From the NCBI GenBank assembly GCA_965284535.1, contig OZ260090.1, positions 1,577,916-1,641,915 on the forward strand: a stretch of DNA of 64,000 nucleotides. Reading direction: 5' to 3'. Made by a program: the position numbers and the translations under genes. Source of the DNA: Caulobacteraceae bacterium. GTDB taxonomy: Bacteria > Pseudomonadota > Alphaproteobacteria > Caulobacterales > Caulobacteraceae. The notes below the pieces were generated by a model. The model searched no databases and was not told the DNA's origin. It was given only the letters and a program-made list of their open reading frames with translations. Below, one piece after another: positions 17,113 to 34,678 of this stretch (positions are counted from its first letter, which is position 1; the number at the start of each line of letters is the position of its first letter).

Positions 17113-17529
17113 ATGACGGGAAATCAGGACAAGGCGGCGCGGGCGGCGGCCCGGCTCGAGCAGATCTATGACCGGCTCGACCCCATGCTGGACAGAGCAA
17201 TGGTCGCGTTGGACGACAGTCCGCTCGAGTCCGGCGATACGCTCGCGGTGCAGCGATTTGTACGTGGCGTGGAACTGGTGGCGAGAGCCGCGCGAACCAT
17301 CGCGACACTGATCAATCCGCCGGGTCGAGGCCCGGGTGCCGCGCAAACAGAGGACGATATGGACAACGATGACCGCGACGACAGCCCCGAGGCGCTGGAC
17401 CGGCTTCGGGCCGAACTCGAGTCCCGTCTCGATGGCCTCCGGACCACGATCGAGGCAAAGCGCGTGGAAGGCTGGACTGTTGTCCGAGCAACTGCGCGAG
17501 GCGATCAAGAGCACGCCGAGGCTGCATAG
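17113..17529 (+). CDS. Putative GTA small terminase (g1 position)
   Basis: First gene of the cluster, helical, DDSPEALDRLRAELESRLDGL; overlaps the large terminase. Confidence 0.65.
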   Translation: MTGNQDKAARAAARLEQIYDRLDPMLDRAMVALDDSPLESGDTLAVQRFVRGVELVARAARTIATLINPPGRGPGAAQTEDDMDNDDRDDSPEALDRLRAELESRLDGLRTTIEAKRVEGWTVVRATARGDQEHAEAA

Positions 17530-18691
17530 CCATCAGGTAATTCCTGAAGTCGACTGGCGAACCTGGCTTGTGCTCGGGGGGCGCGGATCAGGAAAGACCC
17601 ATGCGGGGGCCAACTGGGTCACAGAACTGGCGCGGGCCAGGGGCCTGAGGATAGCCCTGGTCGGGCCGACCCTGCACGATGTGCGCGAGGTCATGGTCGA
17701 GGGGCCTTCGGGCCTGAAGAATTTTGGCGAGACGGGCAACCGCCCACGCTGGGATGGTGGCCGCAAACGGCTGGTCTGGCCCAGCGGAACCGAGGCCCAC
17801 GCCTTTTCCGCGGAGGATCCCGACAGTTTGCGCGGCCCCCAATTTCACCATGCATGGGCCGACGAGTTCTGTGCCTGGAGACGGCCCGAGGCCGTGCTGG
17901 AAAATCTGCGACTGGGACTGCGGCTGGGCGAGGACCCACGCCTCATGGTGACGACGACCCCTCGCCCCCTTCCAGCGCTGAGACGGCTGCTGACCCAGGA
18001 CGGCACCTGTATCGACCGGGCCGGGACGCAGGCCAATGCGGCCAATCTGTCGCCCGGATTTCTGGGCCATCTGCGGACGCTTTACGCCGGGACGCGGCTG
18101 GAGGCGCAGGAGCTGGAGGGGCTGGTGGTCGAGGCCGAGGGGGCCCTGTTCCGGGCCGAGGATCTGGCGCGGGCGCGCGGCAACCGGCCGGCAACGCTGG
18201 AGAGGATCGTGGTGGCGGTGGATCCGCCGGCGAGCGCGGGCGGGGATGCCTGTGGGATCGTGGTCGTCGGGCGCAGGGACGACCGGGCCTATGTACTGGC
18301 GGACCAGTCAGCAGGCGGGCTGTCGCCCCAGGGCTGGGCGACGCGAGTGGCTGAGGTCGCGCGCGAGTTCGGGGCGCTGGAGATCGTGGCCGAGAAGAAC
18401 CAGGGCGGGGAGATGGTGCGGACGGTGCTGGCGCATGGCGGCTGCGAGGTTCCGATCAGACTGGTGCACGCCAGCCGGGGCAAGGCGGCCCGGGCCGAGC
18501 CGGTGGCGGCGCTGTATGAACAGGGACGGGTCGTTCACTGTGGGGCGTTTCCGGCGCTGGAGGAGGAACTGATGGCGCTGGGAGCGGTCGATGTCGGCGG
18601 GCGCAGTCCCGACCGGGCGGATGCCCTGGTCTGGGCGGTGACGCATCTGCTGCCGGCGCCCAGGGCGGGGCCGAGCCTAAGGGTGTTGTGA
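17480..18691 (+). CDS. GTA large terminase (start uncertain; TTG 17480 proposed)
   Basis: WLVLGGRGSGKT Walker A, LRGPQFHHAWADEFCAW, VVAVDPP, SPDRADALVWA. Confidence 0.92.
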   Translation: MSEQLREAIKSTPRLHSHQVIPEVDWRTWLVLGGRGSGKTHAGANWVTELARARGLRIALVGPTLHDVREVMVEGPSGLKNFGETGNRPRWDGGRKRLVWPSGTEAHAFSAEDPDSLRGPQFHHAWADEFCAWRRPEAVLENLRLGLRLGEDPRLMVTTTPRPLPALRRLLTQDGTCIDRAGTQANAANLSPGFLGHLRTLYAGTRLEAQELEGLVVEAEGALFRAEDLARARGNRPATLERIVVAVDPPASAGGDACGIVVVGRRDDRAYVLADQSAGGLSPQGWATRVAEVAREFGALEIVAEKNQGGEMVRTVLAHGGCEVPIRLVHASRGKAARAEPVAALYEQGRVVHCGAFPALEEELMALGAVDVGGRSPDRADALVWAVTHLLPAPRAGPSLRVL

Positions 18692-18702
18692 AGCCGGGCG
18701 TA

Positions 18703-18848
18703 TCCCTCCCCCGAAGTGGGGAGGGACGGCGGAGCGAAGCGGAGCCCGGGTGGGGAACGACAGTCCCGCACTGACGGCTGCCGGCTTCGGAATTCCCCAC
18801 CCTGTCGTCGCTTCGCGCCGACATCCCTCCCCATGAAGGGGAGGGAGA
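18703..18848. repeat. Composite CIR-like element: two inverted family-A arms between terminase and portal
   Basis: tccctcccc-gaagt-ggggaggga...ggggtgggg / ccccaccc...tccctcccc-atgaa-ggggaggga. Confidence 0.8.
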
Positions 18849-20024
18849 ATGATGGAGATTGGCATGATCAACTGGCGACGGCCCTTTGCGGGCCGGCGGC
18901 GCATTTCTGCGCCTGAAACCAAGGACAGCCGGGCGGGCCCGCTGATCGCCCTGACCAGTGGCGGGCGGGCGCGGTGGACACCGAGGGACTATGCGCATCT
19001 GGCCGAGGAGGGGTTCGCGAAGAACGCCGTGGCCTATCGCTGTGTGCGGATGATCGCCGAGGCGGCGGCGTCGACGCCGCTGGTGGTTTTCGCCAAGGGG
19101 GTTCGACGGGACGATCATCCGCTGGCGGCGCTGCTGGGGCGGCCGAACCCGGAGCAGTCCGGGGCGGAGTGGCTGGAGGCGCTGTACGGCGCGCTGCAGA
19201 CGGCGGGGAACGCCTATGCGGAAGCGGTCGGGGAGGGCGCGCCCGAGGAACTTTGGACGCTGCGGCCGGACCGGGTGAAGGTGGTTCCCGGCCGCGACGG
19301 ATGGCCCGAGGCCTGGGAGTATTCCGTCGACGGACGATCGGTCCGGATCGGGCGGGCGACGGACGGATGGTCTCCGGTGATGCAGCTGAAACTGTTTCAT
19401 CCGACCGACGATCACTACGGCTTTTCGCCGCTGGAGGCGGCGGCGTTCGCGATTGATGTTCACAACGCCTCGGGAGCCTGGAACAAGGCGCTGCTGGACA
19501 ATGCGGCGCGGCCGTCGGGGGCGCTGGTCTATGGGGCCAAGGATGGCGAACGGCTGACGGCCGAACAGTTCGAAGGCCTGCGGGCGCAGGTCGAGGACAG
19601 TCACGCCGGGACGATGAACGCCGGGCGGCCGATGATCCTGGAAGGCGGGCTGGACTGGAAGCCGATGAGCTGGACGCCCGCCGACATGGACTTCATCGCG
19701 GGCAAGCATGCGGCGGCGCGGGAGATCGCCTTGGCCTTCGGGGTGCCGCCGCAGCTGCTGGGGATTCCGGGGGACGCCACCTACGCCAACTATCGCGAGG
19801 CCAATGCCGCCTTCTGGCGCGGGACGGTGGTGCCACTGGTGCGCAAGACCGCGGCGGCGCTGACGGGGTGGCTGGGCGGGCGGTTCGCCGGGGTCAGGAT
19901 CGAGGCGGACCTGGACGGGTTGCCCGCGTTGCAGCCCGAGCGCGATGCGCTTTGGGCGCGGCTGAACGCGGCGACCTTCCTGACCGATGATGAGCGACGG
20001 CGGATGGCGGGGGTGGGGGCGTGA
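18849..20024 (+). CDS. GTA portal protein (HK97 family)
   Basis: NAVAYRCVRMIAEAAAS, LRPDRVKVV, FHPTDDHYGFSP, NAARPSGAL, FGVPPQLLGIPGDATYANY. Confidence 0.95.
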   Translation: MMEIGMINWRRPFAGRRRISAPETKDSRAGPLIALTSGGRARWTPRDYAHLAEEGFAKNAVAYRCVRMIAEAAASTPLVVFAKGVRRDDHPLAALLGRPNPEQSGAEWLEALYGALQTAGNAYAEAVGEGAPEELWTLRPDRVKVVPGRDGWPEAWEYSVDGRSVRIGRATDGWSPVMQLKLFHPTDDHYGFSPLEAAAFAIDVHNASGAWNKALLDNAARPSGALVYGAKDGERLTAEQFEGLRAQVEDSHAGTMNAGRPMILEGGLDWKPMSWTPADMDFIAGKHAAAREIALAFGVPPQLLGIPGDATYANYREANAAFWRGTVVPLVRKTAAALTGWLGGRFAGVRIEADLDGLPALQPERDALWARLNAATFLTDDERRRMAGVGA

Positions 20025-20251
20025 TGGAGACGATGCGGAGAATCCCCGTCGCGGTCATCGTGGCACTGGCGGTGCAAACCGTCGGCGGGCTGGTGTGGGC
20101 CGGTGGGGCGGCGGCGCGGATCGCCACGCTGGAGGAACGGGTCGGCGAGCAGCGGCTGGTCGCCGAGCGGCTGGCCCGCCTGGAGGAACAAAGCCTGGCG
20201 ACGCGGGCGGCGGTGGAGCGGATGGAACGGCGGCTGGAGGGCGGAGAGTGA
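20021..20251 (+). CDS. Small GTA protein between portal and protease (g3.5 position)
   Basis: Hydrophobic N-terminus plus coiled coil ERLARLEEQ; overlapping start/stop on both sides. Confidence 0.7.
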   Translation: MMETMRRIPVAVIVALAVQTVGGLVWAGGAAARIATLEERVGEQRLVAERLARLEEQSLATRAAVERMERRLEGGE

Positions 20252-20724
20252 GGGGCGAGAGTCCCGGGGCGAGGGTCGAGGAAGGCGATAGCGGGGTTTC
20301 GACCCGCAACCCTCGACCCGCGACCCTCCGGATCCACGGCTACGCCTCGCTATGGGGTGTCGCGGACCTGAACGGGGATGTGGTGGCGAAGGGCGCGTTC
20401 GCGGCGAGTCTGGCGAGGACCGGGCCCGGGGGCGTGCGGATGCTGCATCAGCATGAGGGTCGGGCGGCGGTCGGGGTCTGGGACCGGATGGTCGAGGACG
20501 AGCGCGGACTGTTTGTCGAGGGCCGGGTCATGGACTGGTCAGCGGAGGCGCGGTTTGCCCAGGCGCTGTCGCGGGCGGGGGCGCTGGACGGGCTGTCGAT
20601 CGGCTTCCGCAGCAGCCGGGCGCGGCGCGAGGGCCGGCTGAGGGTGCTGGTCGAGGTCGAGCTTTGGGAGGTGTCGCTGGTGACGTTTCCGATGCTGCCG
20701 GGGGCCAGGTTCCGGGTGGCCTGA
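20248..20724 (+). CDS. GTA prohead protease (HK97 family)
   Basis: IHGYASLWGVADLNGDVVAKGAF, MLHQH, GLFVEG, DGLSIGF, LWEVSLVTFPM. Confidence 0.92.
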   Translation: MRGESPGARVEEGDSGVSTRNPRPATLRIHGYASLWGVADLNGDVVAKGAFAASLARTGPGGVRMLHQHEGRAAVGVWDRMVEDERGLFVEGRVMDWSAEARFAQALSRAGALDGLSIGFRSSRARREGRLRVLVEVELWEVSLVTFPMLPGARFRVA

Positions 20725-20740
20725 TGTTCGGCGGGGCTCG

Positions 20741-21298
20741 TCAGTCCACCGGAGGCAGGTAGTCCGCCGGCAGCGGTATGGCCGGGGTTTCGCCCTGCCA
20801 GTAGATGCTGAGGATCCACCAGCGGGTGCCGTCGTGAAACAGCTGGATGCTGTTGATACCGCGGGCGAAGGGCTCGGGGTCGGAGGCGGCACGGCGGCTG
20901 TCATAGGTCGAAAAGACATGGGCCATGTGGCCGAAACGTTCGAAGCGCCGTGCGATCTCGCGCTCGTGGAAGCCGCGCATCAGGAAGGGTTCGGCGCGAG
21001 CGATATATTCGTCGGGCGTGAGCGGCGTCAGGGTGGCCGGGTCACCGGGCCGACCTGCGACCGGCGTCAGGAGGGCGGCCGGATGGAACAGGCTGCGGAA
21101 GCGGTCCCAGTCGCGGGCCACGCCGGCGTCGCCGGATATGGACTCATAGAGCGCCGCGACAATGGCCTCGGGCGTGGCGACATCGGCGGGGGCGGCGACG
21201 AGGGCCGATGCCGCTGTCACCGGTGAGGGGACCGATTGGGCGAGGACCGGGGTCGCGAACGCGAGGATCGCGGCGGCGGCAAATACCAAAAAACGCAT
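20741..21298 (-). CDS. Secreted NTF2/SnoaL-like protein (cargo)
   Basis: Signal peptide; RDWDRFRSLFHP, FHEREIARRFERFGHMAHVFSTY, GINSIQL...RWWILSIYW. Confidence 0.75.
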   Translation of the reverse strand: MRFLVFAAAAILAFATPVLAQSVPSPVTAASALVAAPADVATPEAIVAALYESISGDAGVARDWDRFRSLFHPAALLTPVAGRPGDPATLTPLTPDEYIARAEPFLMRGFHEREIARRFERFGHMAHVFSTYDSRRAASDPEPFARGINSIQLFHDGTRWWILSIYWQGETPAIPLPADYLPPVD

Positions 21299-21477
21299 CG
21301 AGTTTCCTCTCCGTGTCGGCGGAGTATGACGGGCGGGGCGGGCAACCGCCAGTGCGTAGCGGTCGTGGATTTTGCGATCGCAAACCCGTGTCATGTGACC
21401 CTGTCCGGGTCGGCGGGTTTCGCGCAGGGGGCCGCATGGTATGATTCCCGGAAACCGAAATCTGGTGGAGTCGCTGA

Positions 21478-22356
21478 ATGAAGCGCTGTCTTCTGATCGT
21501 CCTGGGCCTGATGGCCGGGCTGGCCGGGCCGGTCGCGGCGCAGACCCCGGTCGGCGTAAATGCCGAGGTCGAGAACAGCGTCCGGACGCGCAGCCTCGGC
21601 GAGGGTGACTGGCGGGCTTCGGTTGTCGACGGGATCGTTCGCCAAGCCGACGCCATCGTCACGGGCGATCAGGCCCGGCTGCTGATCCGGTTGAGGGATC
21701 AGTCTGAGCTGACCGTCGGGGCCAATGCGTCGCTGAACGTCGACCGGTTCCTGATCGACGCGGAGCCCGATCCGGCCGGTGTGCTGTTCTCGCTGGTGCG
21801 CGGTGCCTTCCGATTTGTGTCTGGAAGTCGGGGGGCGGAACGCGACCGGGTCGCCTTCCGCACGCCCACGGCGACAGTCGGGATCCGCGGAACGATCATC
21901 GAGGCCGCGGTCGGGGCCGATGCGGTGGAACTGCTGCGCGGCGAGACCGTGGATGTCGAGCCGGGGGATGATCCGGAGCAGGCAGCAGTAATCGTGCTGG
22001 TCGAAGGCGAGATCGAGATCGAGGTCGACGGAGTGCGACGCATCGTGCGGGAACCCGGACAGGCGGTGGCCGTGACGGGGCGGCGGGTGTCGCAGCCCTT
22101 CCGCCTGTCGCCGGAGGCCGGACGGCGTCTGGCGGACCGGCTGCCTCCGCGAGAACTGGGCGGACCGGGAGCGGTCACACAGGGGCAGGGGCCGAATCCC
22201 CAGGGTCAGGCTCCGCAAGCTCAGCCGCCGCAAGGTCAGCCGCTTCAGGGGCAAACTCCCCAGGGTCAGGGCAACCAGGCCGGACCATCAGGGCGCGCGC
22301 CTGGCGGGCCGAGCGGGCGGCCGCCCGGGGGCGGGGGCGGCCGACAGCCGGGATAG
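21478..22356 (+). CDS. Secreted FecR-domain protein with Gln/Pro/Gly-rich tail (cargo)
   Basis: Signal peptide; DAIVTGDQARLLIRLRDQSELTVGANASL, GAFRFVSG, TPTATVGIRGT. Confidence 0.8.
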   Translation: MKRCLLIVLGLMAGLAGPVAAQTPVGVNAEVENSVRTRSLGEGDWRASVVDGIVRQADAIVTGDQARLLIRLRDQSELTVGANASLNVDRFLIDAEPDPAGVLFSLVRGAFRFVSGSRGAERDRVAFRTPTATVGIRGTIIEAAVGADAVELLRGETVDVEPGDDPEQAAVIVLVEGEIEIEVDGVRRIVREPGQAVAVTGRRVSQPFRLSPEAGRRLADRLPPRELGGPGAVTQGQGPNPQGQAPQAQPPQGQPLQGQTPQGQGNQAGPSGRAPGGPSGRPPGGGGGRQPG

Positions 22357-22364
22357 GCCAGCCG

Positions 22365-22910
22365 TCAGGTCCGGGCCGAACCCCGGCAGTCGATCCAGTT
22401 CAGGGCGGCGGTCATGCCGTTGAGCGAGAAATAGGCTTCGGCCGGTCCGTCGGTGGAGGGGTAGTTCCAGCGCGCGATGCGCTGGCGGCGCAGGCCCGAG
22501 ACGAGGGAGCGGGTCAGGATCGGGTCACTGACGCGGAACTCGTTCGAACCCGGTGAGGTCGGCACCATCCATGGACCGGGATCAACGGTCTGACCGGGCG
22601 TGGTGAAACTCATGGGGCCGGTGACAGGCATGGGGTCGGCCGCGGCGAGCTCGACGAGGTGGTCGGCGCCGGGGCTGGGGCGGGCGACACGCAGTTGTTG
22701 ACGCCAGGCGGCCTGACCCGTCGGATCGGGCAGGGCGACGACGGCGGAGCAATAGCCGTCCGGTCGGCAGGCGGCGAGGGTGTCGCCGAAATAGGCCCGG
22801 GTCTCGCCGAAACGCATGTGGGTTTCAGCCCCGCAGCGATCCGTGGCCTGGACGGCACCGGCGGACAGCAGGACGAAGGCGGTGGTCGCCGTGGCGAGCA
22901 GTCTGGACAT
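22365..22910 (-). CDS. Secreted hypothetical protein (cargo)
   Basis: Signal peptide AVQA-TD; FGDTLAACRPDGYCSA; FSLNGMTAALNWID. Confidence 0.65.
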   Translation of the reverse strand: MSRLLATATTAFVLLSAGAVQATDRCGAETHMRFGETRAYFGDTLAACRPDGYCSAVVALPDPTGQAAWRQQLRVARPSPGADHLVELAAADPMPVTGPMSFTTPGQTVDPGPWMVPTSPGSNEFRVSDPILTRSLVSGLRRQRIARWNYPSTDGPAEAYFSLNGMTAALNWIDCRGSART

Positions 22911-22990
22911 CGGCGCAATCCCAAGCTTGACCATGGTTAACGCTGATCACGCCGTTCGGTGAGTGTCAATCATGCGCAACTTCAAGGACA

Positions 22991-23797
22991 TCATCGCTGA
23001 GGCGGGCGATACTCGTACCTGCCCAGCCCGCGGGTCGCCCGTGTGAGGGCGGCGAGGATCTTCGGCTTGTGCAGCATCCGTCCAAGGAAGATGGCGAGGA
23101 AGACGGCGAAGAACAGCGAGAAGCGGAAGATCACCACGGCGAGGAATGAGACGACGGCGATGATGACCCAGAGGCCGATGATGACGGATGTCTGGTCTTC
23201 CTGGTCTGGCTCGCCCTCGACTTCTGTCTGTTCGGAGACGGGAGTGACCTTGCCGAACAGGACGTCGACCAGGGTCTGGGCCCCGGGGTCCTGGACCTTC
23301 TGAAGGGGGCCGACATTGGCCAGGCGCGGTTCGACCGGAAGGTCCGGCTCGTGATCGGTGTGCCGGTGGAGGTCCAGCAGGGGGCTGGGCTGCATCAGGG
23401 CGGCGGGGTCGAAGGCGATGGAGTCGCCGTGTTTGTCGATGGTGAAGACCTGATCGTAGGGGACCCGGGCGAAGTCGATGGCGCGGGTGTCCTGACCATA
23501 GGCGTCGCCGTGCAGGAACAGCAGCCGGCCCTGTCGAAGTTCGGCCTGGAAGGCGACCGGGTCCGGCAGATCACCGACCATGGCGTGGACCGTGCCGAAG
23601 CGGCCGGTCGGGCTGGTCAGGGGCGGCGGGCGGTCGCGGTCGACGATCAGTTCGGTCAACAGGCCGGAGCCGGTATTGCGGCGGGAGCCGGGCAGGGACT
23701 CCGCGAACTGGCCCGCGAGGTCCGGCGCGATGTCGCGCAGGTCCCAGGCGAGGGCGTCGAGGACGTCGGATTCGAGGGGGGTGAAGCGGGTGCTCAC
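22991..23797 (-). CDS. Hypothetical membrane protein (cargo)
   Basis: 268-aa ORF with host-like codon use and two C-terminal TM helices. Confidence 0.7.
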   Translation of the reverse strand: MSTRFTPLESDVLDALAWDLRDIAPDLAGQFAESLPGSRRNTGSGLLTELIVDRDRPPPLTSPTGRFGTVHAMVGDLPDPVAFQAELRQGRLLFLHGDAYGQDTRAIDFARVPYDQVFTIDKHGDSIAFDPAALMQPSPLLDLHRHTDHEPDLPVEPRLANVGPLQKVQDPGAQTLVDVLFGKVTPVSEQTEVEGEPDQEDQTSVIIGLWVIIAVVSFLAVVIFRFSLFFAVFLAIFLGRMLHKPKILAALTRATRGLGRYEYRPPQR

Positions 23798-23883
23798 CCC
23801 TTGGCTCGCGGCGATAATTTTTCAAGGAGGCGGTTCACGCCTCGACCCTAACCGCGATCCGCGGTTCTTCAACCGGAGATACC

Positions 23884-25119
23884 ATGAAAGAGACCAAAAC
23901 CGTCTCGGGCACGCCCGAGGCGCGCGCCGCCATGCATGAAATGATGGCGGCGTTCGAGGCGTTCAAAGGGGCCAATGACGCCCGGCTGGACGAGATCGAG
24001 CGCAAGAGCTCGGTGGACGCGTTGCTGGAGGAGAAGGTGGCGCGGATCGATCAGGCGGTCGGGGCGGCGCAGGCGCGGCTGGACCGGGTGGTGAGCGAGG
24101 GCAGGCGGCCGGAACTGGCCCCCTCCGGCGGCTTCGCCGCCACCTCCCCCATGAAGGGGGAGGAGAAGTCGGCGTTCGACGGCTATCTGAAGACCGGCGC
24201 TTCGTTCGGGTTGGAGCTGAAGGCGGGGCTTTCGACGGCGTCGAACTCGGCCGGCTATGTGGTGCCGGAACAGACCGAGCGGGCCATCGAGAGACGCTTG
24301 ATGGCGGGGTCGCCGATGCGCGAGATCGCCACGGTGCGGACGGTCGGCGCGGGGGTGTTCAGAAAGCCGGTGTCGACGGCGGGCGTGGCCTCGGGCTGGG
24401 TGGCCGAGACGGCGGCGCGGCCGGAGACGGATCCGGCGACCCTGGCCTTGCTGGAGTTTCCGTCGGCCGATCTCTACGCCAATCCGGCGGCGACCCAGTC
24501 GCTGCTGGACGACGCCCTGATCGATCTGGACGAATGGCTGGCGGCCGAGGTCGAGGACGCCTTCGCGGCGCAGGAGACCCAGGCCTTCGTCACCGGCGAC
24601 GGGGTCAACAAGCCGAAGGGCTTCCTGGACTATGACATCGTCGCCGAGGCGGACCATGCGTGGGGCGAGATCGGCTATGTCGCCTCGGGCGCGGCAGGTG
24701 CGTTCGCCTCTACCAGCCCGACCGATCGGCTGATCGACCTGGTCTATGCGCCCAAGGCCCAGTACCGGCCGAACGGGCGGTTCGTGATGAACCGCAAGAC
24801 GGTCTCGGCGGTGCGGAAGTTCAAGGACGCCGACGGCAACTACATCTGGCAGCCGGCGCAGCGGGCGGGCGAGACGGCCAGCCTGCTGGGCTATCGCGTG
24901 ACCGAGATCGAGACCATGCCGGACATCGCCGCCGACAGCGCGGCCATCGCCTTCGGCGACTTCCAGCGCGGCTATCTGATCGTGGATCGCGCGGGGGTGC
25001 GGGTGTTGAGGGACCCGTATTCGGCCAAGCCCTATGTGCTGTTCTACACGACCAAGCGCGTGGGCGGCGGGGTGCAGAACTTTGATGCGATCAAGGTGAT
25101 GAAGTTCAGCGCGACGTAG
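23884..25119 (+). CDS. GTA major capsid protein (HK97 fold)
   Basis: AGYVVPEQTER, SPMREIATV, WVAETAARPET, DGVNKPKGFL, RDPYSAKPYVLFYTTKRVGG. Confidence 0.97.
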   Translation: MKETKTVSGTPEARAAMHEMMAAFEAFKGANDARLDEIERKSSVDALLEEKVARIDQAVGAAQARLDRVVSEGRRPELAPSGGFAATSPMKGEEKSAFDGYLKTGASFGLELKAGLSTASNSAGYVVPEQTERAIERRLMAGSPMREIATVRTVGAGVFRKPVSTAGVASGWVAETAARPETDPATLALLEFPSADLYANPAATQSLLDDALIDLDEWLAAEVEDAFAAQETQAFVTGDGVNKPKGFLDYDIVAEADHAWGEIGYVASGAAGAFASTSPTDRLIDLVYAPKAQYRPNGRFVMNRKTVSAVRKFKDADGNYIWQPAQRAGETASLLGYRVTEIETMPDIAADSAAIAFGDFQRGYLIVDRAGVRVLRDPYSAKPYVLFYTTKRVGGGVQNFDAIKVMKFSAT

Positions 25120-25122
25120 TCG

Positions 25123-27282: not shown

Positions 27283-27802
27283 CAGCTTTGAGCCGACCGG
27301 CCTGGACGGCGTGCCGCGCAAGGCGGCGGAGGCGGCGGCGGCGCTGGAAGCGCTGCGGGAGCCGGCGGAGCGGGCGGCGGCCTCGATCGAGGATGCATTC
27401 GGCAAGGCGGGCGAAGGGCTGGTCCGGTCGCTGGCGCGGGCGGCGGCGGACGGAGAAATCAGCCTGGCCGAGCTGGCGCGGGCGGTGCTGGCGGCGGTGA
27501 ACGCGGCGTCAGGATCGGGCGGCGGCGGGCTGGGGAATGCGATCGCCCAGGCGGTGCAGACCGCCTTTTCAGGCTCGCGCGCGGACGGCGGGACGGTGCT
27601 GGGCGGTGGAACCTATCTGGTCGGGGAGCGAGGGCCGGAGGTGTTCCGGCCCGCCGGCGCGGGCGCGATCGAACCGGCAGGGGGTGGCGGCGTCACCGTC
27701 AATGTGCGGGTGGACGGCGGGGCGCAGGGACTGCTGCGCTCGGAAGCCCAGATCGCCCAGATGCTGGCGCGCGCCGTATCGCTGGGCGCGCGCCGGCTCT
27801 GA
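27275..27802 (+). CDS. GTA tape measure protein (short)
   Basis: Ala-rich helix, FSGSRADGGTVLGG, YLVGERGPEVFRP, RSEAQIAQML. Confidence 0.88.
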   Translation: MTDSFEPTGLDGVPRKAAEAAAALEALREPAERAAASIEDAFGKAGEGLVRSLARAAADGEISLAELARAVLAAVNAASGSGGGGLGNAIAQAVQTAFSGSRADGGTVLGGGTYLVGERGPEVFRPAGAGAIEPAGGGGVTVNVRVDGGAQGLLRSEAQIAQMLARAVSLGARRL

Positions 27803-27808
27803 GCCGTG

Positions 27809-28471
27809 TCAGCTGAAGATTTCGGCGGTCGTTCGGCCGGATGAGCCGGGAACGGGGCCGTGGGTGTTGGGCCGCTCCTGGGACGGCAGGACACTGATGA
27901 CCAGGGTGATCAGGGGGCCGAGGTATGGAATGGCGTTCAACAGAACCAGCCAGCCGGAGAGACCGACGTCGTGGAAGCGGCGGATCATGGCGCACAGGGC
28001 GGGCAGAATGGTGCCGAGATAGGCCAGGCCGCCGAGGATCATGAAGCCGAGGCCGACCGGAGAGGCATCGTCACCCGGCTCGGTCCAGACTCCGGAAATG
28101 ACACCGCCGATCAGGATCGGGACGGCGACGATCAGGGCGCGGAACAGGACGAAGTACCAGTATTCGCGACGGCGCGCGCGACCATAGCCGTCGACGTATT
28201 TGCTCATGCAACGCCGGAAATATCCCCAGGGAGAGGTCTCGCCGGCGTCCGGGCGCGCCGAATCGCCGAGCGCATGGCCCGACGACGTGGTGCCGGACGA
28301 GAGAAGGACGATCTGGGTCGCGACGCCTTCGACCGGCTCGAAGCCGATGCGATCGCCGCGGTGCACGATGAAACCCCGAACGTCTCGGGTAGAAAAGGCG
28401 TAGCGGATGCCGTCGTCGCCGCTGACCAGGGCATCGCCGTCCCCGCTGACCTCAAGCACCTCACCCCGCAT
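27809..28471 (-). CDS. DUF805 membrane protein with N-terminal OB/cold-shock-like domain (cargo)
   Basis: KYVDGYGRARRREYWYF, IRRFHDVGLSGW, PSQERPNTHGP; N-terminal MRGEVL...LVSGDDGIRYAF. Confidence 0.85.
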   Translation of the reverse strand: MRGEVLEVSGDGDALVSGDDGIRYAFSTRDVRGFIVHRGDRIGFEPVEGVATQIVLLSSGTTSSGHALGDSARPDAGETSPWGYFRRCMSKYVDGYGRARRREYWYFVLFRALIVAVPILIGGVISGVWTEPGDDASPVGLGFMILGGLAYLGTILPALCAMIRRFHDVGLSGWLVLLNAIPYLGPLITLVISVLPSQERPNTHGPVPGSSGRTTAEIFS

Positions 28472-28597
28472 ATCCCGCCCCTTCGTTGATCCCGACCCGA
28501 GCTGGCGGGTCGGCGGCGAAGCTTGGCCGAAGATGGGGAGCCGGACAACCGGAAGATGACGGACAGGGCCGGAACCGCCGTTCGCGGCCCTGTCGGA

Positions 28598-29104
28598 TCA
28601 GCTGAAGGTGCTCGCGGGCGTCGGGTCCTTTGGATTTGAACCGAAGCGATTGGATCCCGCCTGTCCTTCGGAAAGGCCGATCCACAGCAGGAAGCCGAGA
28701 TTGACCAGGGTCAACACGGCGAAGAGACCAATCGCAGGACCGATCAGGGCGAAGATGGCCGCCGGGTCTTCCTGCTCAAGGGCGGCAGCGTTTGCGAAGA
28801 CCGACAGGCCGATCATGCTGACCGCGACGATGCCGCCTACGATGCTGACAACCCACGGGATGAGGACAAGCCAGCCGCTCTTGCCCATGTCGTGTAGCCG
28901 CTTCACCGAGATGGCCAGGTTGGGCCAGATCAGGGCCAGCGAGATAAAGCCGCCGAGAATGGGAATCCATCCGGCGACAACCCCCACGCCCAGACAGATC
29001 AGCCAGCCAATCCAGAAATGCGAGCGGCGGGTGCGCCCCTCGAACGAAAACAACAGCTTCTGCCAGTCGAATCCTTGAATCTGGTTTGAGGTCTCAACGC
29101 TCAT
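28598..29104 (-). CDS. DUF805 membrane protein (cargo)
   Basis: LFSFEGRTRRSHFW, VKRLHDMGKSGW, EGQAGSNRFG; start MSVETS. Confidence 0.88.
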   Translation of the reverse strand: MSVETSNQIQGFDWQKLLFSFEGRTRRSHFWIGWLICLGVGVVAGWIPILGGFISLALIWPNLAISVKRLHDMGKSGWLVLIPWVVSIVGGIVAVSMIGLSVFANAAALEQEDPAAIFALIGPAIGLFAVLTLVNLGFLLWIGLSEGQAGSNRFGSNPKDPTPASTFS

Positions 29105-29214
29105 CGTGCCCTCCGGTTGGCTGCGGGCCTGACGCCCGATGCGCGAGAATGGCGTAACGGCGCTCGCTCGACAAGCGAAAGCGGGGCCGTGGATGTACCG
29201 AACAGGAGAGCAGG

Positions 29215-29847
29215 GTGATGTCCTTTCACGAGGTGAGGCTGCCCGCGCGGCTGGCGTTCGGATCGACCGGCGGGGTCGAGCGGCGGACGGAGATCGTGAC
29301 CTTGGGGTCGGGGTTCGAGCGGCGTTCGACGCCCTGGGCCGAGGGGCGACGGCGCTATCTGATCGGGGCCAATCTGCGGTCGCTGGACGATATGGCGGCG
29401 CTGACCGGATTCTTCGAGGCGCGTCGTGGGCGGTTGTACGGGTTCCGGTTCCGGGACTTCGCGGACTGGAAATCCTGTGCGCCCGGAGGGGCGGTCGGGC
29501 CGCTGGATCAGGGGTTGGGCGACGGTGACGGGGCACGGGCCGCCTTCCCGCTGTTGAAGCGATACGGCGAGGGCGAGGATGCGCTGGATCGCCGGATCAC
29601 CAAGCCGGTCGCGGGCACAGTGCGGGTCGCCGTCGACGGTGAGGAACTGTCCACGGAGGCGTTCGCGGTTGATGCGGCGACCGGGCTGGTGACGCTGGTG
29701 GACCCGCCGGACGAGGCCACGGCGGTGACGGCAGGGTTCGAGTTCGACACGCCGGTGCGGTTCGACGCCGACCGGATCGAGGTCACGCTCGAGAGTTTTG
29801 ACGCCGGACGGATGGCGGCCGTGCCGCTGATCGAGATCAGGGTCTGA
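29215..29847 (+). CDS. GTA distal tail protein (DUF2460, g12)
   Basis: FHEVRLPARLAFGSTGGVERRTEIVTLGSGFERR, FFEARRGRLYGFRFRDFADWKS, AGFEFDTPVRFD. Confidence 0.95.
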   Translation: MMSFHEVRLPARLAFGSTGGVERRTEIVTLGSGFERRSTPWAEGRRRYLIGANLRSLDDMAALTGFFEARRGRLYGFRFRDFADWKSCAPGGAVGPLDQGLGDGDGARAAFPLLKRYGEGEDALDRRITKPVAGTVRVAVDGEELSTEAFAVDAATGLVTLVDPPDEATAVTAGFEFDTPVRFDADRIEVTLESFDAGRMAAVPLIEIRV

Positions 29848-29850
29848 GCC

Positions 29851-30504
29851 ATGCGAGCGATACCGGAAGAAATGGTTGCCCGTATCGAGAGCGGGGCGGC
29901 GTCGCTGTGTCATGCCTGGGTGCTGCGGCGAGCGGACGGGGCCGAGTTGGGCTTTACGGACCATGACCGTGATCTGGTGGTCGAAGGCGTGATCTGCCGG
30001 GCGGCGAGCGGCTGGACCGCGGGGGCGACGGACGGCGCCGTGGGCCTGAGCGCCGGGTCGGCGGCGGTTGCGGGCGGGCTGGATGATGTCGCGATCACCG
30101 ACGCGGACATTGAGGCGGGGTTGTATGACGCGGCATCGGTCGCGCTGTGGAGGGTGGCCTGGAGTGAGCCAGATCTGAGGGCGCGACTCTGGACGGCGAC
30201 GCTGGCGCGTATCCGGCGTGAGGGCGCGGGCTTCGTCGCGGAGATGGAAGGGCCGCTGGCGAAGCTGGAGCGGGTGGTCGGGCGGACCTTTGGGCGGGAC
30301 TGCGATGCGGTGTTGGGTGACGGGCGCTGTGGTGTCGACCTTGAGACGTTTCCGGGGGCGGTCTGCGACAAGCGCTGGTCCACCTGTGTCGGGACGTTCG
30401 CGAACGGCGGCAATTTCCAGGGCTTTCCGGACATCCCGGGCGACGATTTCCTGACCGCGGTGCCGGTCGAAGGCGGGCGCAACGACGGCGGGAGCCGGCG
30501 ATGA
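29851..30504 (+). CDS. GTA baseplate hub (DUF2163, g13), compact form
   Basis: GFTDHDRDL, CDAVLGDGRCGVDL, CDKRWSTC...NFQGFPDIPGDDFL. Confidence 0.9.
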   Translation: MRAIPEEMVARIESGAASLCHAWVLRRADGAELGFTDHDRDLVVEGVICRAASGWTAGATDGAVGLSAGSAAVAGGLDDVAITDADIEAGLYDAASVALWRVAWSEPDLRARLWTATLARIRREGAGFVAEMEGPLAKLERVVGRTFGRDCDAVLGDGRCGVDLETFPGAVCDKRWSTCVGTFANGGNFQGFPDIPGDDFLTAVPVEGGRNDGGSRR

Positions 30505-30953
30505 GGGCCGCTGTGGTGGCGGCCGCGCGCGGCTGGCTTGGGACGCCCTATCGGCATCAGGCCAGTGTGAAGGGCGAGGGGGCGGATTGCCTGGGCCTGG
30601 TCAGGGGCGTGTGGCGTGAGCTGATCGGGGCCGAGCCGGAGCCGCCGCCGCCCTATCGGCCGGACTGGGCCGAGGCAGGGGGCGAGGAGACGCTGCTGGC
30701 GGCGGCGCGGCGCTGGCTGACGGAGGTACCGGTGACGGGTGCAACGGCCGGCGATGTGGTGCTGTTCCGCATGGCCCCGGGCTGTCCGGCCAAACACTGC
30801 GCCATCCTGAGCGACATGACCGGCACGGAGCCGAGAATGATCCACGCCTATTGGGGCCGGTCGGTCGTGGAGAGCTGGATGGGGTCGTGGTGGCGAACCC
30901 GGCTGGTGGCGGCGTTCCGCTGGCCCGGCAGTGAACAGGTCAGAGGAGGCTGA
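30501..30953 (+). CDS. GTA NlpC/P60 peptidoglycan peptidase (g14)
   Basis: ARGWLGTPYRHQASVKGEGADCLGLVRGVW, AKHCAIL, MIHAY. Confidence 0.95.
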   Translation: MRAAVVAAARGWLGTPYRHQASVKGEGADCLGLVRGVWRELIGAEPEPPPPYRPDWAEAGGEETLLAAARRWLTEVPVTGATAGDVVLFRMAPGCPAKHCAILSDMTGTEPRMIHAYWGRSVVESWMGSWWRTRLVAAFRWPGSEQVRGG

Positions 30954-30955
30954 AC

Positions 30956-33900
30956 ATGGCGCAGATGATCCTGAGCAGCGTCGGCCAGGCGGTTGGCGGC
31001 CCGATCGGATCGGTGATCGGGGCGACGATCGGGCGGGCGATCGACCAGCGGGTAGTCTCCGGCCTGGAGCCGGCGCGGCAGAAGGGGCCGCGACTGGAAA
31101 TGCTGAAGGTACAGGGGACGGCGGAGGGCGCGCCCATGGCCTGTGTGTTCGGGCGCGCCCGGGTGACGGGGCAGGTGATCTGGGCCGCGCGATTCCTCGA
31201 GGGGCGACACACATCGTCTGGCGGCAAGGGCGGGCCGAGGACGGTGGAATATGACTATTCGCTGAGCTTCGCCGTGGCCCTGTGCGAGGGCGAAATCGAC
31301 GGTATCGGGCGGGTCTGGGCCGACGGGGGGTTGATGGACCTGTCCGGTGTGACGATGCGGGTGCATCGGGGCGGCGTCGAACAGATGCCCGATCCGCTGA
31401 TCGAGGCGGTGGAGGGGTTGGCTCCGGCGTATCGGGGCACCGCCTATGTGGTGTTCGAGGACCTGCCGTTGGGGCCGTACGGCAACCGGCCGCCGCAACT
31501 GGGGTTCGAGGTCTTTCGACGGGCGCGCGGCGACGCGCCGCGACTGGAGGACCGGCTGGAGGGCGTCTGCCTGATCCCCGGTGCCGGGGAGTTCGTTCTG
31601 GCGACTGATGGCGTGATGCGGCGCGAGGGACTGACCCGGACGACGTCAGAGAATTTGCATGCGGCCGGCGGGCTCGCGGATCTGGTTGTGTCGCTGGACC
31701 AGCTGCAGGCGCAGTGTCCGAACCTGAAGCGGGTCAGTCTGGTGCTCGGCTGGTTCGGCGACGACCTGAGGGCGGGACATTGCACGATCCGGCCGGGCGT
31801 GGAGGCGGTGGACAAGGCGACGGAGCCATTGACCTGGTCGGTGGCCGGTCTGGAGCGGGGCGGGGCCCATCAGATCTCGCAGGTCCCCTCCGGTGGCCCC
31901 GCCTACGGCGGGACGCCGTCGGACGAGAGCGTGCGGCAGGCGGTGGCGGCCCTGAAGGCGCGGGGCCTGGAGGTGACGCTATATCCGTTCGTGCTGATGG
32001 ATGTGCCGGCGGGGAACGCGTTGCCGGACCCCTATGGCGGCACAGAACAGGCCGCCTATCCCTGGCGTGGGCGGGTGAAGGGCGAGGACGGCGCGGGCGT
32101 GGCTGCGGAGGTCGCAGCGATGTTCGGGACGGCGGAGGGCTGGGGGCTGCGAAGGCTGGCGTTGCACTATGCAGCGTTGGCGGCGGAGACCGGGGCGGAC
32201 GGGCTGTTGATCGGCTCGGAGATGCGCGGGCTGACGACGACGCGGGATGTCGGCGGAGGGTTTCCGGCGGTCGATGAGCTCAGGGCGCTGGCGAACGAGT
32301 GTCGGGCGGTGGTCGGGCCGGGGGTGGCGATCAGCTATGCGGCGGACTGGTCGGAATATGCGGGGGTGCGGGATGGGGACGAGGTGGCGTTTCACCTTGA
32401 TCCGCTGTGGGCCGATGCGGCCATCGATTACGTCGGGATCGACTGGTATCCGCCGCTGGGTGACTGGCGGGCGGGCGACGGCGGCATGGACAGCGCGGAG
32501 TTTGCCGGGCCCGAGGATGCCGCCTATCTGGCGGCCCAGGTCGCGGGCGGGGAGGGGTTCGACTGGTTCTATGCCTCGGACGCCGACCGGGCAACGCAGG
32601 CGCGGACGCCGATCTCTGACACCGCCCACGGCGAGGACTGGGTGTTCCGGGTCAAGGACCTGATGGGGTGGTGGTCGAACGCACACCATGACCGGCCCGC
32701 CGGGGTGCGCAGCGCGACACCGACGGCCTGGGGCGCCAGGATGAAGCCGATCCGGCTGACGGAGTTCGGCTGCGCGGCGGTGGACCGGGGCGGCAATGCG
32801 CCGAACCTGTTTCAGGATCCAAAGAGTGCCGAGAGCGCACTGCCGCCGTTCTCGACCGGCGCGCGGGACGACCGTATCCAGCGGCGGGCGCTTGAGGCGG
32901 TACTGGAGCACTTCGCGACAGCGGAGAACAATGCGGTCTCGTCGGCATACGGCGGGCCGATGGTGGAGGGGGCCGACGTCTGGTGCTGGGACGCGCGGCC
33001 GTATCCGGCGTTTCCAGCGCGGGGCGATGTCTGGACGGATGCGGGTGGCTGGCGGACCGGACACTGGTTGAACGGACGGCTGGCCGGCGAGACGCGTGAT
33101 CTGATCGCGGCGGTGCTGCGACGCGGCGGACTGGCGGAGGACGAGTTCGAAATCGGCAGCTTTGCGGGCGAGGTGCGGGGCTATGTGATCGATCGGCCCA
33201 TGCGGACCCGGGATGCGCTGGAGCCCTTGCTGGCGGGTCCTGGTCTGATTGCGGCCGAGCGGAATGGCCGGGTGGCGGTGATCGGGGATGAAGCCGCGAC
33301 GGCGACGCTGACGCATGAGTCGATGGCGCTGCCGGACGAGGGCGCGAGCCTTAAGGCGGAGCGGGTGCTGGAGCTGAGGCCCGGTACGGCGCGGGTCCGC
33401 TATATCGACGGGGAGGCCGGGTATCAGACCGGATCGGCGGTTGTCAGGTCGGCGGGCCTGGGCGGCGGGGTCGATCTGGACCTCCCGGCGGTCTGCTCCG
33501 GTGCCCTGGCGCGGGCGGCGGCCGAGCGGGTACTTGAGGCCGGCGGGGCCGATCGGCTGACGGTGATGCTGGGGCCGGTCGAGGCCCTGGCGCTGGAACC
33601 CGGAGACACGGTGACGATCGAGGGCCGGAACGGCGGCTGGCGGGTGATGCGGGTCGACATGGACGAGACGCCGTCGGCGGTGGTGGAGCCGGTCTCGATG
33701 GTCGTTATCGGCGAGGATGACGGTCGGCCCATGCCGGGTGAGCCATCGGACGTCTCCGGTGCCCCCTTCTTTCGCATGATGGAACTGCCACCGCTGATCG
33801 GCAGCGAGGACGACGCGCGACCGATCGCGATCGTGGCGACCGAGCCCTGGCGGCCCATGCGGGTGTTCGCCGGAGCCGACGTGGCGTCGTTGATGGCGCG

Positions 33901-34678
33901 GGGCGATGTAGCGCAGCCGGCGACGGTCGGGGTGCTGGTTGAGGCCCTGGAGCCGGGCGCGCGACATCGCTGGGACGAAGTGAACGCCATGCTGGTCCGG
34001 ATCGAGGGACGGGCGCCGGAAAGCCGGTCCGGGGCAGCTGTGTTCGCAGGCGGCAACGCGGTGGCCGTCGACACCGGACAAGGCTGGGAGTTGGTGCAGT
34101 TCCGGTCGGCGACGCTGGTCGGCGACGGCGTGTGGCGGCTGACGGGTCTGTTGCGGGGGCAGCAAGGGACAGAGGCTGTCGGAGCGACAGGCGGGGCGGT
34201 GGTCGTGTTTCTGGATCAGGCCCCGGTTCGGGCGGAGTCGCCGCGCGCCGAGCGGGGGCTGCCGCTGATATGGCGGGCCGGGCCGGCGGGTGGACCGGCT
34301 GGGGGCGCGGGGGTGAGCGAGGTGGGCTTCACAACACATGGCGTCCACGAGCGCCCCTGGTCGCCGGCACATTTGAAGGCTGCCGCGCGGGCGGACGGCG
34401 GGTTCGACCTGTCCTGGATTCCGCGGCTGAGTATCGATGGCGACCGATGGGACAGGGAGGCGGCCGTCTCCGACGCATCGCGCTTCCGCGTGCGGTTGCT
34501 GGACGGCGCGGAAGAGGTGCGGGTGTTCGAGGTCGAGGTGGAGACGTCAATCTATGCAGCGGCGGATCTGGCGGATGATTTTCCCGTCGAGCTGGATGCG
34601 GACTCGCGCGTCGCCGTGGCGCAGTGGGGCGACGGATACGGCTGGGGCGTGGAGGCCGTGGCGGGACTGATCGGGTGA
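30956..34678 (+). CDS. GTA baseplate/host-specificity protein (g15, TIM-barrel plus phage tail domains)
   Basis: GRARVTGQVIWA, AYRGTAYVVFEDLPL...NRPPQL, IPGAGEFVLA, SYAADWSEY, WCWDARPYP, LLRGQQGTE. Confidence 0.95.
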   Translation: MAQMILSSVGQAVGGPIGSVIGATIGRAIDQRVVSGLEPARQKGPRLEMLKVQGTAEGAPMACVFGRARVTGQVIWAARFLEGRHTSSGGKGGPRTVEYDYSLSFAVALCEGEIDGIGRVWADGGLMDLSGVTMRVHRGGVEQMPDPLIEAVEGLAPAYRGTAYVVFEDLPLGPYGNRPPQLGFEVFRRARGDAPRLEDRLEGVCLIPGAGEFVLATDGVMRREGLTRTTSENLHAAGGLADLVVSLDQLQAQCPNLKRVSLVLGWFGDDLRAGHCTIRPGVEAVDKATEPLTWSVAGLERGGAHQISQVPSGGPAYGGTPSDESVRQAVAALKARGLEVTLYPFVLMDVPAGNALPDPYGGTEQAAYPWRGRVKGEDGAGVAAEVAAMFGTAEGWGLRRLALHYAALAAETGADGLLIGSEMRGLTTTRDVGGGFPAVDELRALANECRAVVGPGVAISYAADWSEYAGVRDGDEVAFHLDPLWADAAIDYVGIDWYPPLGDWRAGDGGMDSAEFAGPEDAAYLAAQVAGGEGFDWFYASDADRATQARTPISDTAHGEDWVFRVKDLMGWWSNAHHDRPAGVRSATPTAWGARMKPIRLTEFGCAAVDRGGNAPNLFQDPKSAESALPPFSTGARDDRIQRRALEAVLEHFATAENNAVSSAYGGPMVEGADVWCWDARPYPAFPARGDVWTDAGGWRTGHWLNGRLAGETRDLIAAVLRRGGLAEDEFEIGSFAGEVRGYVIDRPMRTRDALEPLLAGPGLIAAERNGRVAVIGDEAATATLTHESMALPDEGASLKAERVLELRPGTARVRYIDGEAGYQTGSAVVRSAGLGGGVDLDLPAVCSGALARAAAERVLEAGGADRLTVMLGPVEALALEPGDTVTIEGRNGGWRVMRVDMDETPSAVVEPVSMVVIGEDDGRPMPGEPSDVSGAPFFRMMELPPLIGSEDDARPIAIVATEPWRPMRVFAGADVASLMARGDVAQPATVGVLVEALEPGARHRWDEVNAMLVRIEGRAPESRSGAAVFAGGNAVAVDTGQGWELVQFRSATLVGDGVWRLTGLLRGQQGTEAVGATGGAVVVFLDQAPVRAESPRAERGLPLIWRAGPAGGPAGGAGVSEVGFTTHGVHERPWSPAHLKAAARADGGFDLSWIPRLSIDGDRWDREAAVSDASRFRVRLLDGAEEVRVFEVEVETSIYAAADLADDFPVELDADSRVAVAQWGDGYGWGVEAVAGLIG

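Follow-up and report, generated by a model that had tools for sequence, protein, structure and literature searches.

Gene content and order of the cluster

The 64-kb stretch of Caulobacteraceae DNA analysed here (contig OZ260090.1 of assembly GCA_965284535.1; hereafter the window, with coordinates counted from its first nucleotide) carries a cluster of phage-like genes at positions 17113-34678 of the + strand. A gene transfer agent (GTA) is a domesticated phage-like particle that moves random host DNA between cells. At this locus, searches of Pfam, NCBIfam and the PDB, together with gene position, identify all 17 head-tail genes (g1 to g15) of the type found in RcGTA, the GTA of Rhodobacter capsulatus. 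The genes are collinear with RcGTA, running from g1, the large terminase (TerL), portal, g3.5, protease and major capsid protein (MCP) through g6-g11 to g12-g15, and two foreign interruptions leave this order unchanged. Sixteen genes could be named by hidden Markov model (HMM) or PDB searches, g7 with a score below the curated cut-off, while g1 was assigned by position only. Based on the results presented below, the region is very probably the head-tail cluster of an RcGTA-type GTA handed down vertically within the Brevundimonas lineage.

At about 68% G+C, raw lists of open reading frames (ORFs) are crowded with spurious frames, and genes were picked by codon-position GC and then checked in profile searches with Pfam, NCBIfam and PHROG; the PDB was searched with concatenated proteins. 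Relatives were collected by scanning the capsid protein against one genome per species, which yielded 80 loci, nearly all of them from Brevundimonas, and every window protein was compared with these loci by tblastn. Selection was estimated as the pairwise Nei-Gojobori (NG86) ratio of nonsynonymous to synonymous substitution (dN/dS) against orthologues, and medians are reported. Most of the Pfam and NCBIfam assignments exceed the curated cut-offs. In the PDB, the best matches are RcGTA chains, with E values in the concatenated search of 7e-231 for g15 (Rcc01698), 2.5e-120 for the portal, 9e-87 for the MCP (Rcc01687), 8e-68 for g12 (6TBA_6B), 3e-41 for the tail tube (Rcc01691) and 4e-40 for the hub. 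A published definition of RcGTA-like clusters demands at least six (strictly, at least nine) head-tail homologues with neighbours no more than 8 kb (strictly, 5 kb) apart (PMC6821227); the largest spacing between neighbouring GTA genes is 3.16 kb here, which places the region among such clusters.

The head genes begin with the portal protein (g3, 18849-20024; Phage_portal, 3.6e-89), to which the closest PDB structure is that of the RcGTA portal Rcc01684 (E = 2e-122, 55% identity over 372 amino acids (aa)). Between portal and protease, with 4-nucleotide (nt) overlaps at both ends, lies g3.5 (20021-20251), which encodes a small membrane/coiled-coil protein of 76 aa that is 57-89% identical in relatives, has a dN/dS of 0.22 and matches PHROG 19911 (function unassigned). 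The HK97-family prohead protease (g4, 158 aa, 20248-20724; Peptidase_S78, 4.4e-23; TIGR01543, 2.2e-27) has readable motifs MLHQHE and GLSIGF. The HK97-fold MCP (g5, 411 aa, 23884-25119; Phage_capsid, 3e-90) is 80-95% identical across the 80 loci. It is followed by the head-tail connector/adaptor (g6, 88 aa, 25270-25536; Phage_connect_1, 2.4e-10), by the head completion/stopper protein (g7, 100 aa, 25533-25835), and by the tail completion/terminator protein (g8, 25832-26239; Tail_completion_gp17, 2.9e-27). The assignment of g7 is based on its position, its 4-nt overlaps and its conservation with a dN/dS of 0.30; its Phage_HCP match is weak (E = 0.0011, under the curated cut-off).

The tail genes start with the tail tube protein (g9, 26334-26744; Phage_tail_2, 1.2e-43) and a pair of tail assembly chaperones, g10 (26741-27040) and g10.1 (27100-27282). 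The pair matches Phage_TAC_11 'GTA-gp10' (1.5e-14) and Phage_TAC_6 (1.6e-11), and more weakly the rcc01693 family; the open frame of g10.1 extends back to 26965, into the end of g10. The tape measure protein (g11, 27275-27802) gave weak tape-measure matches, and its 175 aa are close to the 176-181 aa of other GTA clusters, whereas the nearest true phages have about 700 aa. Among the profiles searched, the GTA-typical tail models score highest, and all of them lie above their curated cut-offs. The distal tail protein (g12, 29218-29847; DUF2460, 1.7e-79) matches TIGR02217 'Rcc01695 family' with 248 bits, and the baseplate hub (g13, 217 aa, 29851-30504; PF09931, 4.7e-49) matches TIGR02218 with 224 bits and only the last 28 positions of PF09356. 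Similarly, the NlpC/P60 cell-wall peptidase (g14, 30501-30953; motifs GADCLG and AKHCAI) matches TIGR02219 with 196 bits, and the megatron, a baseplate multidomain protein of 1240 aa (g15, 30956-34678; GTA_TIM, 3.5e-129), matches NF048004 GTA_megatron with 1413 bits. The families of g12-g15 are also found in some phages, being characteristic of GTAs rather than exclusive to them.

An earlier note, made from the letters of the window, had proposed an apparently intact cluster, and most of its description of the genes is borne out. The core genes are all present in RcGTA order, as Pfam, NCBIfam and PDB agree, and the catalytic motifs of TerL, protease and NlpC that it called intact can all be read. 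The absence of visible frameshifts also holds: no frameshift was found, the ORFs are intact, and most genes with a match in a relative align over at least 80% of their length with no internal stops. Its tight start-stop overlaps are found at seven junctions, by 4-8 nt (portal/g3.5, g3.5/protease, g6/g7, g7/g8, g9/g10, g10.1/g11 and g13/g14), but elsewhere two gene islands and several hairpins break up the block. Its picture of one uninterrupted operon has to be given up, with islands of 3.1 kb and 1.3 kb lying inside the cluster.

The g1 and terminase genes

The large terminase (g2, 17369-18691, +) matches Terminase_6N (1.6e-30) and Terminase_6C (8e-27), and its Walker A (GGRGSGKT), Walker B (AWADE) and nuclease (VVAVDP) motifs are present. 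In a search for TerL homologues, at least 120 matches were listed, all of them close, and the names shown among them were all Brevundimonas or soil metagenome. The start of the gene is uncertain: an ATG at 17369 gives 440 aa and an overlap of 161 nt with g1, and a TTG at 17480 gives 403 aa and an overlap of 50 nt. Gene callers are likewise divided, some giving about 408 aa and others about 440 aa. Nearly all relatives retain a start codon 68-69 codons ahead of Walker A, as a GTG within the rare CGT-GAC codon pair of g1 or, if this GTG is lost, as an ATG one codon upstream. Since the early start codon is retained across relatives, the overlap of about 160 nt between g1 and TerL appears to be conserved.

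The ORF in the g1 position (17113-17529, +; 138 aa) is a possible small terminase (TerS) by its position, its size and its conservation as an ORF. In most TerL-bearing loci, TerL is preceded by an ORF of about 99-154 aa that starts with M[TA]GNQD and contains the motif RDDSPExLxRxRxEL. The median dN/dS of g1 is 0.55. As a recognisable small terminase the ORF was rejected, with no HMM match and no meaningful profile match.

A separate observation concerns four loci (L049, L017, L031 and L079) in which the g1 frame has no stop in the stretch examined. In L049, a complete genome of B. sanguinis, g1 shares the frame of TerL and continues without a stop into the Walker A region, which suggests that this locus may carry a g1-TerL fusion. 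In L072, a close relative of L049, g1 and TerL are separate, overlapping ORFs.

Gene islands and hairpins within the cluster

Island A (20741-23797, 3.1 kb, mixed strands) consists of four non-GTA ORFs between the protease stop (20724) and the MCP start (23884). Two of them, on the - strand, encode exported proteins with signal peptides (217 aa, 20741-21394; 189 aa, 22365-22934). On the + strand, a 292-aa ORF (21478-22356) contains a FecR domain (2e-09), the sole Pfam match in the island, and a 268-aa ORF on the - strand (22991-23797) belongs to an orphan family with C-terminal membrane helices. All four have normal coding statistics; none has an NCBIfam match, and PHROG returned only one function-unassigned family, on the FecR-like ORF. 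Island B (27809-29104, 1.3 kb, -) consists of two genes for DUF805 inner-membrane proteins (27809-28471 and 28598-29104; 9e-26 and 1.1e-15), both of which fall into a PHROG family of 'moron' membrane proteins. Of the six inserted genes, five are antisense to the GTA genes, and those nearest the preceding GTA stops end 16 nt (A) and 6 nt (B) from them. A role of the six genes as defence systems was rejected, PADLOC giving no match for any of them.

Of the 80 loci, 45 have the 268-aa gene beside the capsid gene. The family of this gene comprises 416 detectable homologues, and all source names shown for them are 'hypothetical protein'. Its dN/dS is 0.52, and that of the first DUF805 gene is 0.69. 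A structure prediction for the 268-aa protein from a 28-sequence alignment gave a mean pLDDT of 43.6 and was unusable. Island A as a whole recurs, in the same order and orientation, in the closest relatives. One of these, L085 (CP127384.1), is a complete genome labelled Aquidulcibacter paucihalophilus, with the same GTA locus. Since its capsid protein is 93% identical and the same island A is present, L085 is as near to the window as many Brevundimonas genomes are.

The second type of interruption consists of hairpin-forming elements. The 157-nt gap between TerL and portal (18692-18848, +) is a long imperfect palindrome with a predicted RNA fold of -98.2 kcal/mol (z = -5.7; none of 200 shuffles folds as well), and its 3' arm contains the Shine-Dalgarno sequence of the portal gene. 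At the same junction, relatives have hairpins of 40-165 nt with differing sequences. At the g8|g9 junction, a palindromic insertion of 94 nt (26240-26333, +) contains an inverted repeat (26235-26251 / 26278-26294, 94% complementary; fold -33 kcal/mol). This junction measures 1-2 nt in most relatives, and about a dozen carry palindromes of 86-162 nt there. In addition, a CCTCCCC...GGGGAGG hairpin overlaps the g10.1 start.

Two further observations touch the same junctions. GTA junctions repeatedly carry hairpins of the form CCCTCCCC-loop-GGGGAGGG, in the window at 18703-18723, 18825-18845 and 27082-27106 and also in L002, L018, L036 and others. The 3' arm of these hairpins often provides the Shine-Dalgarno sequence or the start codon for the following gene, and the hairpins resemble a REP/MITE-like family colonising intergenic junctions. 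In L004, L016, L017, L018, L031 and L079, the first approximately 20 nt of g12 (ATGGCCTTTCACGAGGTG...) are doubled around a small CCCCGCTTTCGCGGGGATGACA element, an arrangement suggestive of target-site duplication by a small mobile element.

Across the genus, the interrupted junctions vary widely in length: TerL|portal ranges from a few nt to 3.4 kb, protease|MCP from 46 to 4009 nt and g11|g12 from 3 to 2388 nt. Since compact, RcGTA-like versions exist among the relatives (for example L068, L005 and L024), the interrupted state in the window looks derived.

Putative promoter region and expression

Immediately upstream of g1, about 15 Brevundimonas loci share a promoter-like block (16990-17112 in the window, +) whose nucleotide sequence is conserved, and the sequence flanking it diverges. 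On the + strand this block reads as a YBE-like CTATAG motif (17012-17017), a perfect IHF-consensus site AATCAAAAGCTTG (17045-17057), a ZBE-like GCCC..CGCTGG element (17077-17095) and a -10-like TACTCTT (17101-17107) that ends 6 nt before the ATG of g1; the g1 mRNA may be leaderless. In Caulobacter crescentus, the promoter PgtaT contains the GafY site YBE (ACTATG), an IHF site, the GafZ palindrome ZBE (GCGCCCG-CTGGCGC) between -35 and -10, and the -10 element TATCTTT (PMC11150451). The block upstream of g1 thus appears to resemble the GafY/IHF/GafZ promoter of Caulobacter.

The islands and hairpins make expression of the downstream genes depend on read-through or on internal promoters. In C. 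crescentus, GafZ anti-termination carries RNA polymerase over a structured terminator directly after TerL (PMC11150451). One anti-terminated transcript would be the most economical model for the window because features resembling those of C. crescentus are found there in the same places, and we give such a single transcript about an even chance. Under this model, a regulator encoded elsewhere (GafY/GafZ-like, with IHF) would fire the conserved promoter upstream of g1, and a processive anti-termination complex would enable RNA polymerase to read past the hairpin between TerL and portal, then island A, the g8|g9 palindrome and island B. Anti-termination would also account for the tolerance of insertions.

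Alternatively, the cluster may be divided into three or more transcription units (g1-g4, g5-g11 and g12-g15) with their own promoters in the divergent gaps. Such divergent gaps, of 86 nt before g5 and 113 nt before g12, separate these genes from the first gene of each island and could hold bidirectional promoters. The gap before g5 contains a leader (23810-23883, +) with an AT-rich stretch, the short hairpins GGCGgttcaCGCC and AACCGCgatccGCGGTT and a ribosome-binding site. This element is kept in most Brevundimonas loci, alike where the upstream gap is 114 nt and where it is 4 kb, and it may serve as an internal promoter or stabilise the RNA as a leader. However, the leader is equally conserved in species that have no island (gap 114-140 nt) and is therefore not a product of the insertion, and in species without island B the 3-80 nt between g11 and g12 leave no room for a promoter. 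A sigma-70 consensus scan of positions 16500-35500 found no promoter, and terminator-like sites in it were at chance level; moreover, no motif common to the g1 promoter and the regions upstream of g5 and g12 was seen. Separate transcription units are thus an unlikely arrangement, and the single anti-terminated transcript is retained as the working model.

If transcription does pass the junctions in this way, the insertions themselves might have a use. Brevundimonas GTA operons could then be insertion-tolerant platforms, in which GafZ-like anti-termination would let TerL|portal, protease|MCP, g8|g9 and g11|g12 repeatedly accept hairpins and islands with function kept. The 268-aa and DUF805 proteins, as long-resident passengers, would be co-regulated accessory or 'moron' functions rather than neutral cargo, altering, for example, the envelope of producer or recipient cells. 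This proposal is speculative and distinctly improbable at present. As to expression in nature, environmental metatranscriptome contigs that are 90-97% similar to the window cover the capsid gene; they show that close relatives occur in RNA libraries and give a weak hint that the GTA is expressed. A search for RNA-seq runs of the organism itself found none.

Inheritance, selection and genomic context

The GTA gene order is identical throughout the 80 loci. In 54 of 58 loci, g15 is followed by a DnaJ-like gene no more than 400 nt away, and a PAS sensor kinase precedes TerL in 20 of the 47 TerL-bearing loci. The identity of GTA genes tracks that of the flanking host gene (DnaJ-like), with a Spearman rho of 0.79-0.89. 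The fixed position and the co-divergence with the host gene argue for vertical inheritance rather than for an integrating phage.

The structural genes are maintained by purifying selection. Median dN/dS is 0.12-0.35 for 15 of the 17 genes, against 0.16-0.25 for flanking host genes (DnaJ-like, aminotransferase and sensor kinase); the values are crude, with synonymous sites partly saturated and a GC content at third codon positions of about 0.85, but the comparison with host genes is still fair. Individual medians are 0.12 for the tube (g9), 0.18 for the portal, 0.21 for the MCP, 0.22-0.25 for g12-g15, 0.34 for TerL, 0.35 for g8 and 0.42 for g10.1.

The same results bear on the possibility that the locus is a defective or cryptic prophage, that is, the head-tail module of an integrated siphophage whose other modules were lost. 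All of its genes do have phage homologues, and the nearest phages, 42-49% identical in TerL, portal and MCP, have the order of the whole module in common with it. Against this, the locus and its flanks are constant across the genus, the cluster co-diverges with a host gene, all genes are under purifying selection, and the tape measure is GTA-sized. No integrase, recombinase, replication, lysis or repressor gene came up when the likely ORFs of the 64-kb window were scanned with Pfam, and there is no tRNA in the window. Flanking direct repeats were considered as att sites and rejected, only short chance matches being found. The GC content of the cluster is also host-like (0.66-0.71, against 0.66-0.69 in the flanks). 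A prophage remnant is accordingly very improbable.

These findings agree with the earlier note where it saw a Brevundimonas-like genome (the MCP is 80-95% identical to Brevundimonas MCPs), a lack of integrase, replication and lysis genes, and an RcGTA-like GTA instead of a prophage. For the last point the GTA tail genes, the PDB matches, the fixed locus, the co-divergence, the selection and the missing phage lifestyle genes all point the same way. The dN/dS comparison that it had proposed gives purifying selection on structural genes comparable to that on flanking host genes, and the linked att sites or phage replication genes that would have spoken for a phage were not found in the window.

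The remainder of the window encodes PurA, aldolase, phosphoglycerate kinase (PGK), GAPDH, transketolase, PurT, an RpoH-like sigma factor, MucR, two-component systems and transporters, and a few of its ORFs have no domain match. Adjoining the GTA promoter upstream is a gene for a hybrid sensor kinase of 1072 aa (13746-16964) with several PAS domains, HisKA, HATPase and receiver domains. A MucR/Ros-family regulator gene (4190-4633) lies between two divergent DUF2336 genes (2804-4033, +; 4701-6023, -). A 729-aa multi-pass membrane protein with no Pfam match is encoded at 46323-48512 (-), between the aldolase and PGK genes; considered as a GTA tail fibre, this ORF was rejected on account of its membrane topology and its lack of phage features. 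GC skew is 0.15-0.25 over most of the cluster (18001-36000), compared with about 0-0.14 over most of the remaining window. GTA clusters sit in leading-strand GC-skew peaks (PMC9836097), and the skew of the window agrees with this.

Integrity and function of the cluster

Whether the cluster makes working particles in this strain is a separate question, and judging from its sequence we put the chance that it does at even or slightly better. In that case, small capsids and a short tail, its length set by the 175-aa tape measure, would assemble; the terminase would fill the capsids headful with random host DNA; and lysis genes at another locus would release the particles.

The alternative is a cluster that is derived from a GTA but no longer works, in which the islands, the hairpins and the short g6, g13 and protease are signs of decay or repurposing, so that the cluster would be silent or would form incomplete particles. 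Several observations weigh against a complete and working GTA. The operon is broken by 4.4 kb of mostly antisense genes, whose convergent transcription could interfere with GTA expression, and strong hairpins lie inside it. The 88-aa g6 product corresponds to the N-terminal connector domain only (TIGR02215 is matched at profile positions 12-54 of 188), g13 has 217 aa compared with 296 aa in RcGTA (about 80 residues fewer, with four C-terminal Cys kept), and the protease has 158 aa compared with 179-228 aa in other GTA clusters. The g1 ORF has no Pfam, NCBIfam or PHROG match; its hhalign comparison with phage TerS gave an E value of 0.37, and that with the ORF upstream of TerL in another GTA contig gave 0.021, over a 21-column motif only. 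The likeness of the upstream block to PgtaT is one of short motifs. The window was found to contain no gene for a regulator (gafYZ, rogA), for lysis, for a head spike or for a tail fibre, and completeness can thus be judged for the head-tail genes only.

The relatives also supply a point on this side. In about 16 loci, the portal and every GTA gene after it are present with no TerL upstream in the fetched flank, which spans nearly 8 kb in the three that were inspected (L005, L010, L013, L014, L020, L021, L024, L026, L034, L037, L038, L052, L063, L067, L074 and L080 make up this set). In L005 (1-8000), the genes directly before the portal are the CxxCxxCC and ABC-F genes, whose place in the window is upstream of the sensor kinase, and this locus lacks the kinase as well as g1, TerL and the promoter. 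TerL is thus lost or moved in some sister lineages, and the cluster is not kept whole everywhere.

On the other hand, all ORFs in the window are intact, and the dN/dS of 15 of the 17 genes is like that of flanking host genes. The short proteins do not behave as recent lesions: the 88-aa g6 recurs in the relatives checked, and g13 aligns over nearly equal length in almost every relative with a match (that of L085 has 217 aa). As their lengths recur in the relatives checked and they are under selection, the short g6 and g13 are best read as lineage traits. The functional GTA of C. crescentus likewise has an antisense gene and an internal terminator. Decay or repurposing is therefore rather unlikely.

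RcGTA-like clusters have been predicted in approximately 78% of Caulobacterales lineages (PMC6821227). A GTA cluster in Brevundimonas is expected and of a kind already known, and only its insertion hot spots are mildly unusual. They provide a natural test case, in which an apparently selected GTA operon contains 4.4 kb of mostly antisense genes and strong hairpins at genus-variable junctions. If the strain makes particles, it would indicate to what extent anti-termination allows the operon of a domesticated phage to take up insertions, and it would offer candidate accessory genes.

Comparison with known GTAs and phages

RcGTA (rcc01682-rcc01698; PDB entries 6TBA, 6TB9 and 6TE8) has the same 17 genes in the same order as the window, and both have a short tape measure and a cluster without lifestyle genes. 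The RcGTA cluster is contiguous over about 14 kb, whereas that of the window extends over 17.6 kb with two islands and hairpins. Relative to RcGTA, the window has a g13 that is 80 aa shorter, a g6 reduced to its N-terminal domain and a g1 without recognisable homology. The activator of RcGTA is the fused GafA, whereas the upstream sequence of the window resembles the Caulobacter type.

Two entries filed as 'Bacteriophage sp.', MW091529.1 (L081) and MW462191.1 (L082), are the top two matches that TerL, portal, MCP and g15 have in the phage collection. By their annotation they are bacterial contigs with uninterrupted GTA clusters, which matters for users of such 'phage' references. Their gene order is that of the window, and they are 45-47% (TerL), 52-53% (portal), 53-56% (MCP) and 39-40% (g15) identical to it. 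Their tape measures have 176-181 aa; their g6 (186-188 aa), g13 (291 aa) and protease (179-228 aa) are longer. Unlike those of the window, their flanks contain ccm (cytochrome c maturation) genes, a penicillin-binding protein gene and efflux genes.

Compared with these chromosomal GTA clusters, the next-best phages are more distant: the portal is 43-49% identical to phages (and 55% to RcGTA), the MCP no more than 46%, and TerL no more than 43%, except for a Microcystis phage (45.7% over 85% of the query). This margin is consistent in direction but small, and it consists of pairwise identities only. RcGTA-like siphophages (MW202777, Desulfofustis phage OP947159, Dinoroseobacter phage R4C and Rhodobacter phage RcCronus; genomes of 36-46 kb) have a homologous head-tail module with a megatron-like protein of 35-39% identity, and it is their TerL, portal and MCP that are 42-49% identical to the window. 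They differ in what surrounds or extends the module: MW202777 and OP947159 both encode helicases, a TerS of about 190 aa and a tape measure of about 700 aa, to which MW202777 adds an N-acetylmuramidase.

A further parallel is CcGTA, the GTA of C. crescentus (CCNA_02880-02861), which is experimentally active, with regulators and lysis genes at other loci (PMC9632790, PMC11150451). Its host belongs to the same order as that of the window, and it was compared here by published description rather than by sequence. In CcGTA, an antisense non-GTA gene, CCNA_02873, lies beside the capsid gene (PMC9632790), at the junction that island A occupies in the window. Similarly, a structured terminator stands directly after TerL in CcGTA and is bypassed by GafZ (PMC11150451), where the window has the 157-nt hairpin. 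The two systems are not identical in these features: the CcGTA terminator terGTA consists of three 150-bp direct repeats, and the window has one palindrome; the CcGTA region from the transcription start to the TerL start codon is dispensable, and the window holds a conserved g1-like ORF there; and CcGTA has one inserted gene, compared with the four genes of island A and a second island in the window. Nevertheless, since the active CcGTA contains both an antisense gene and an internal terminator, interruptions of this kind are compatible with function.

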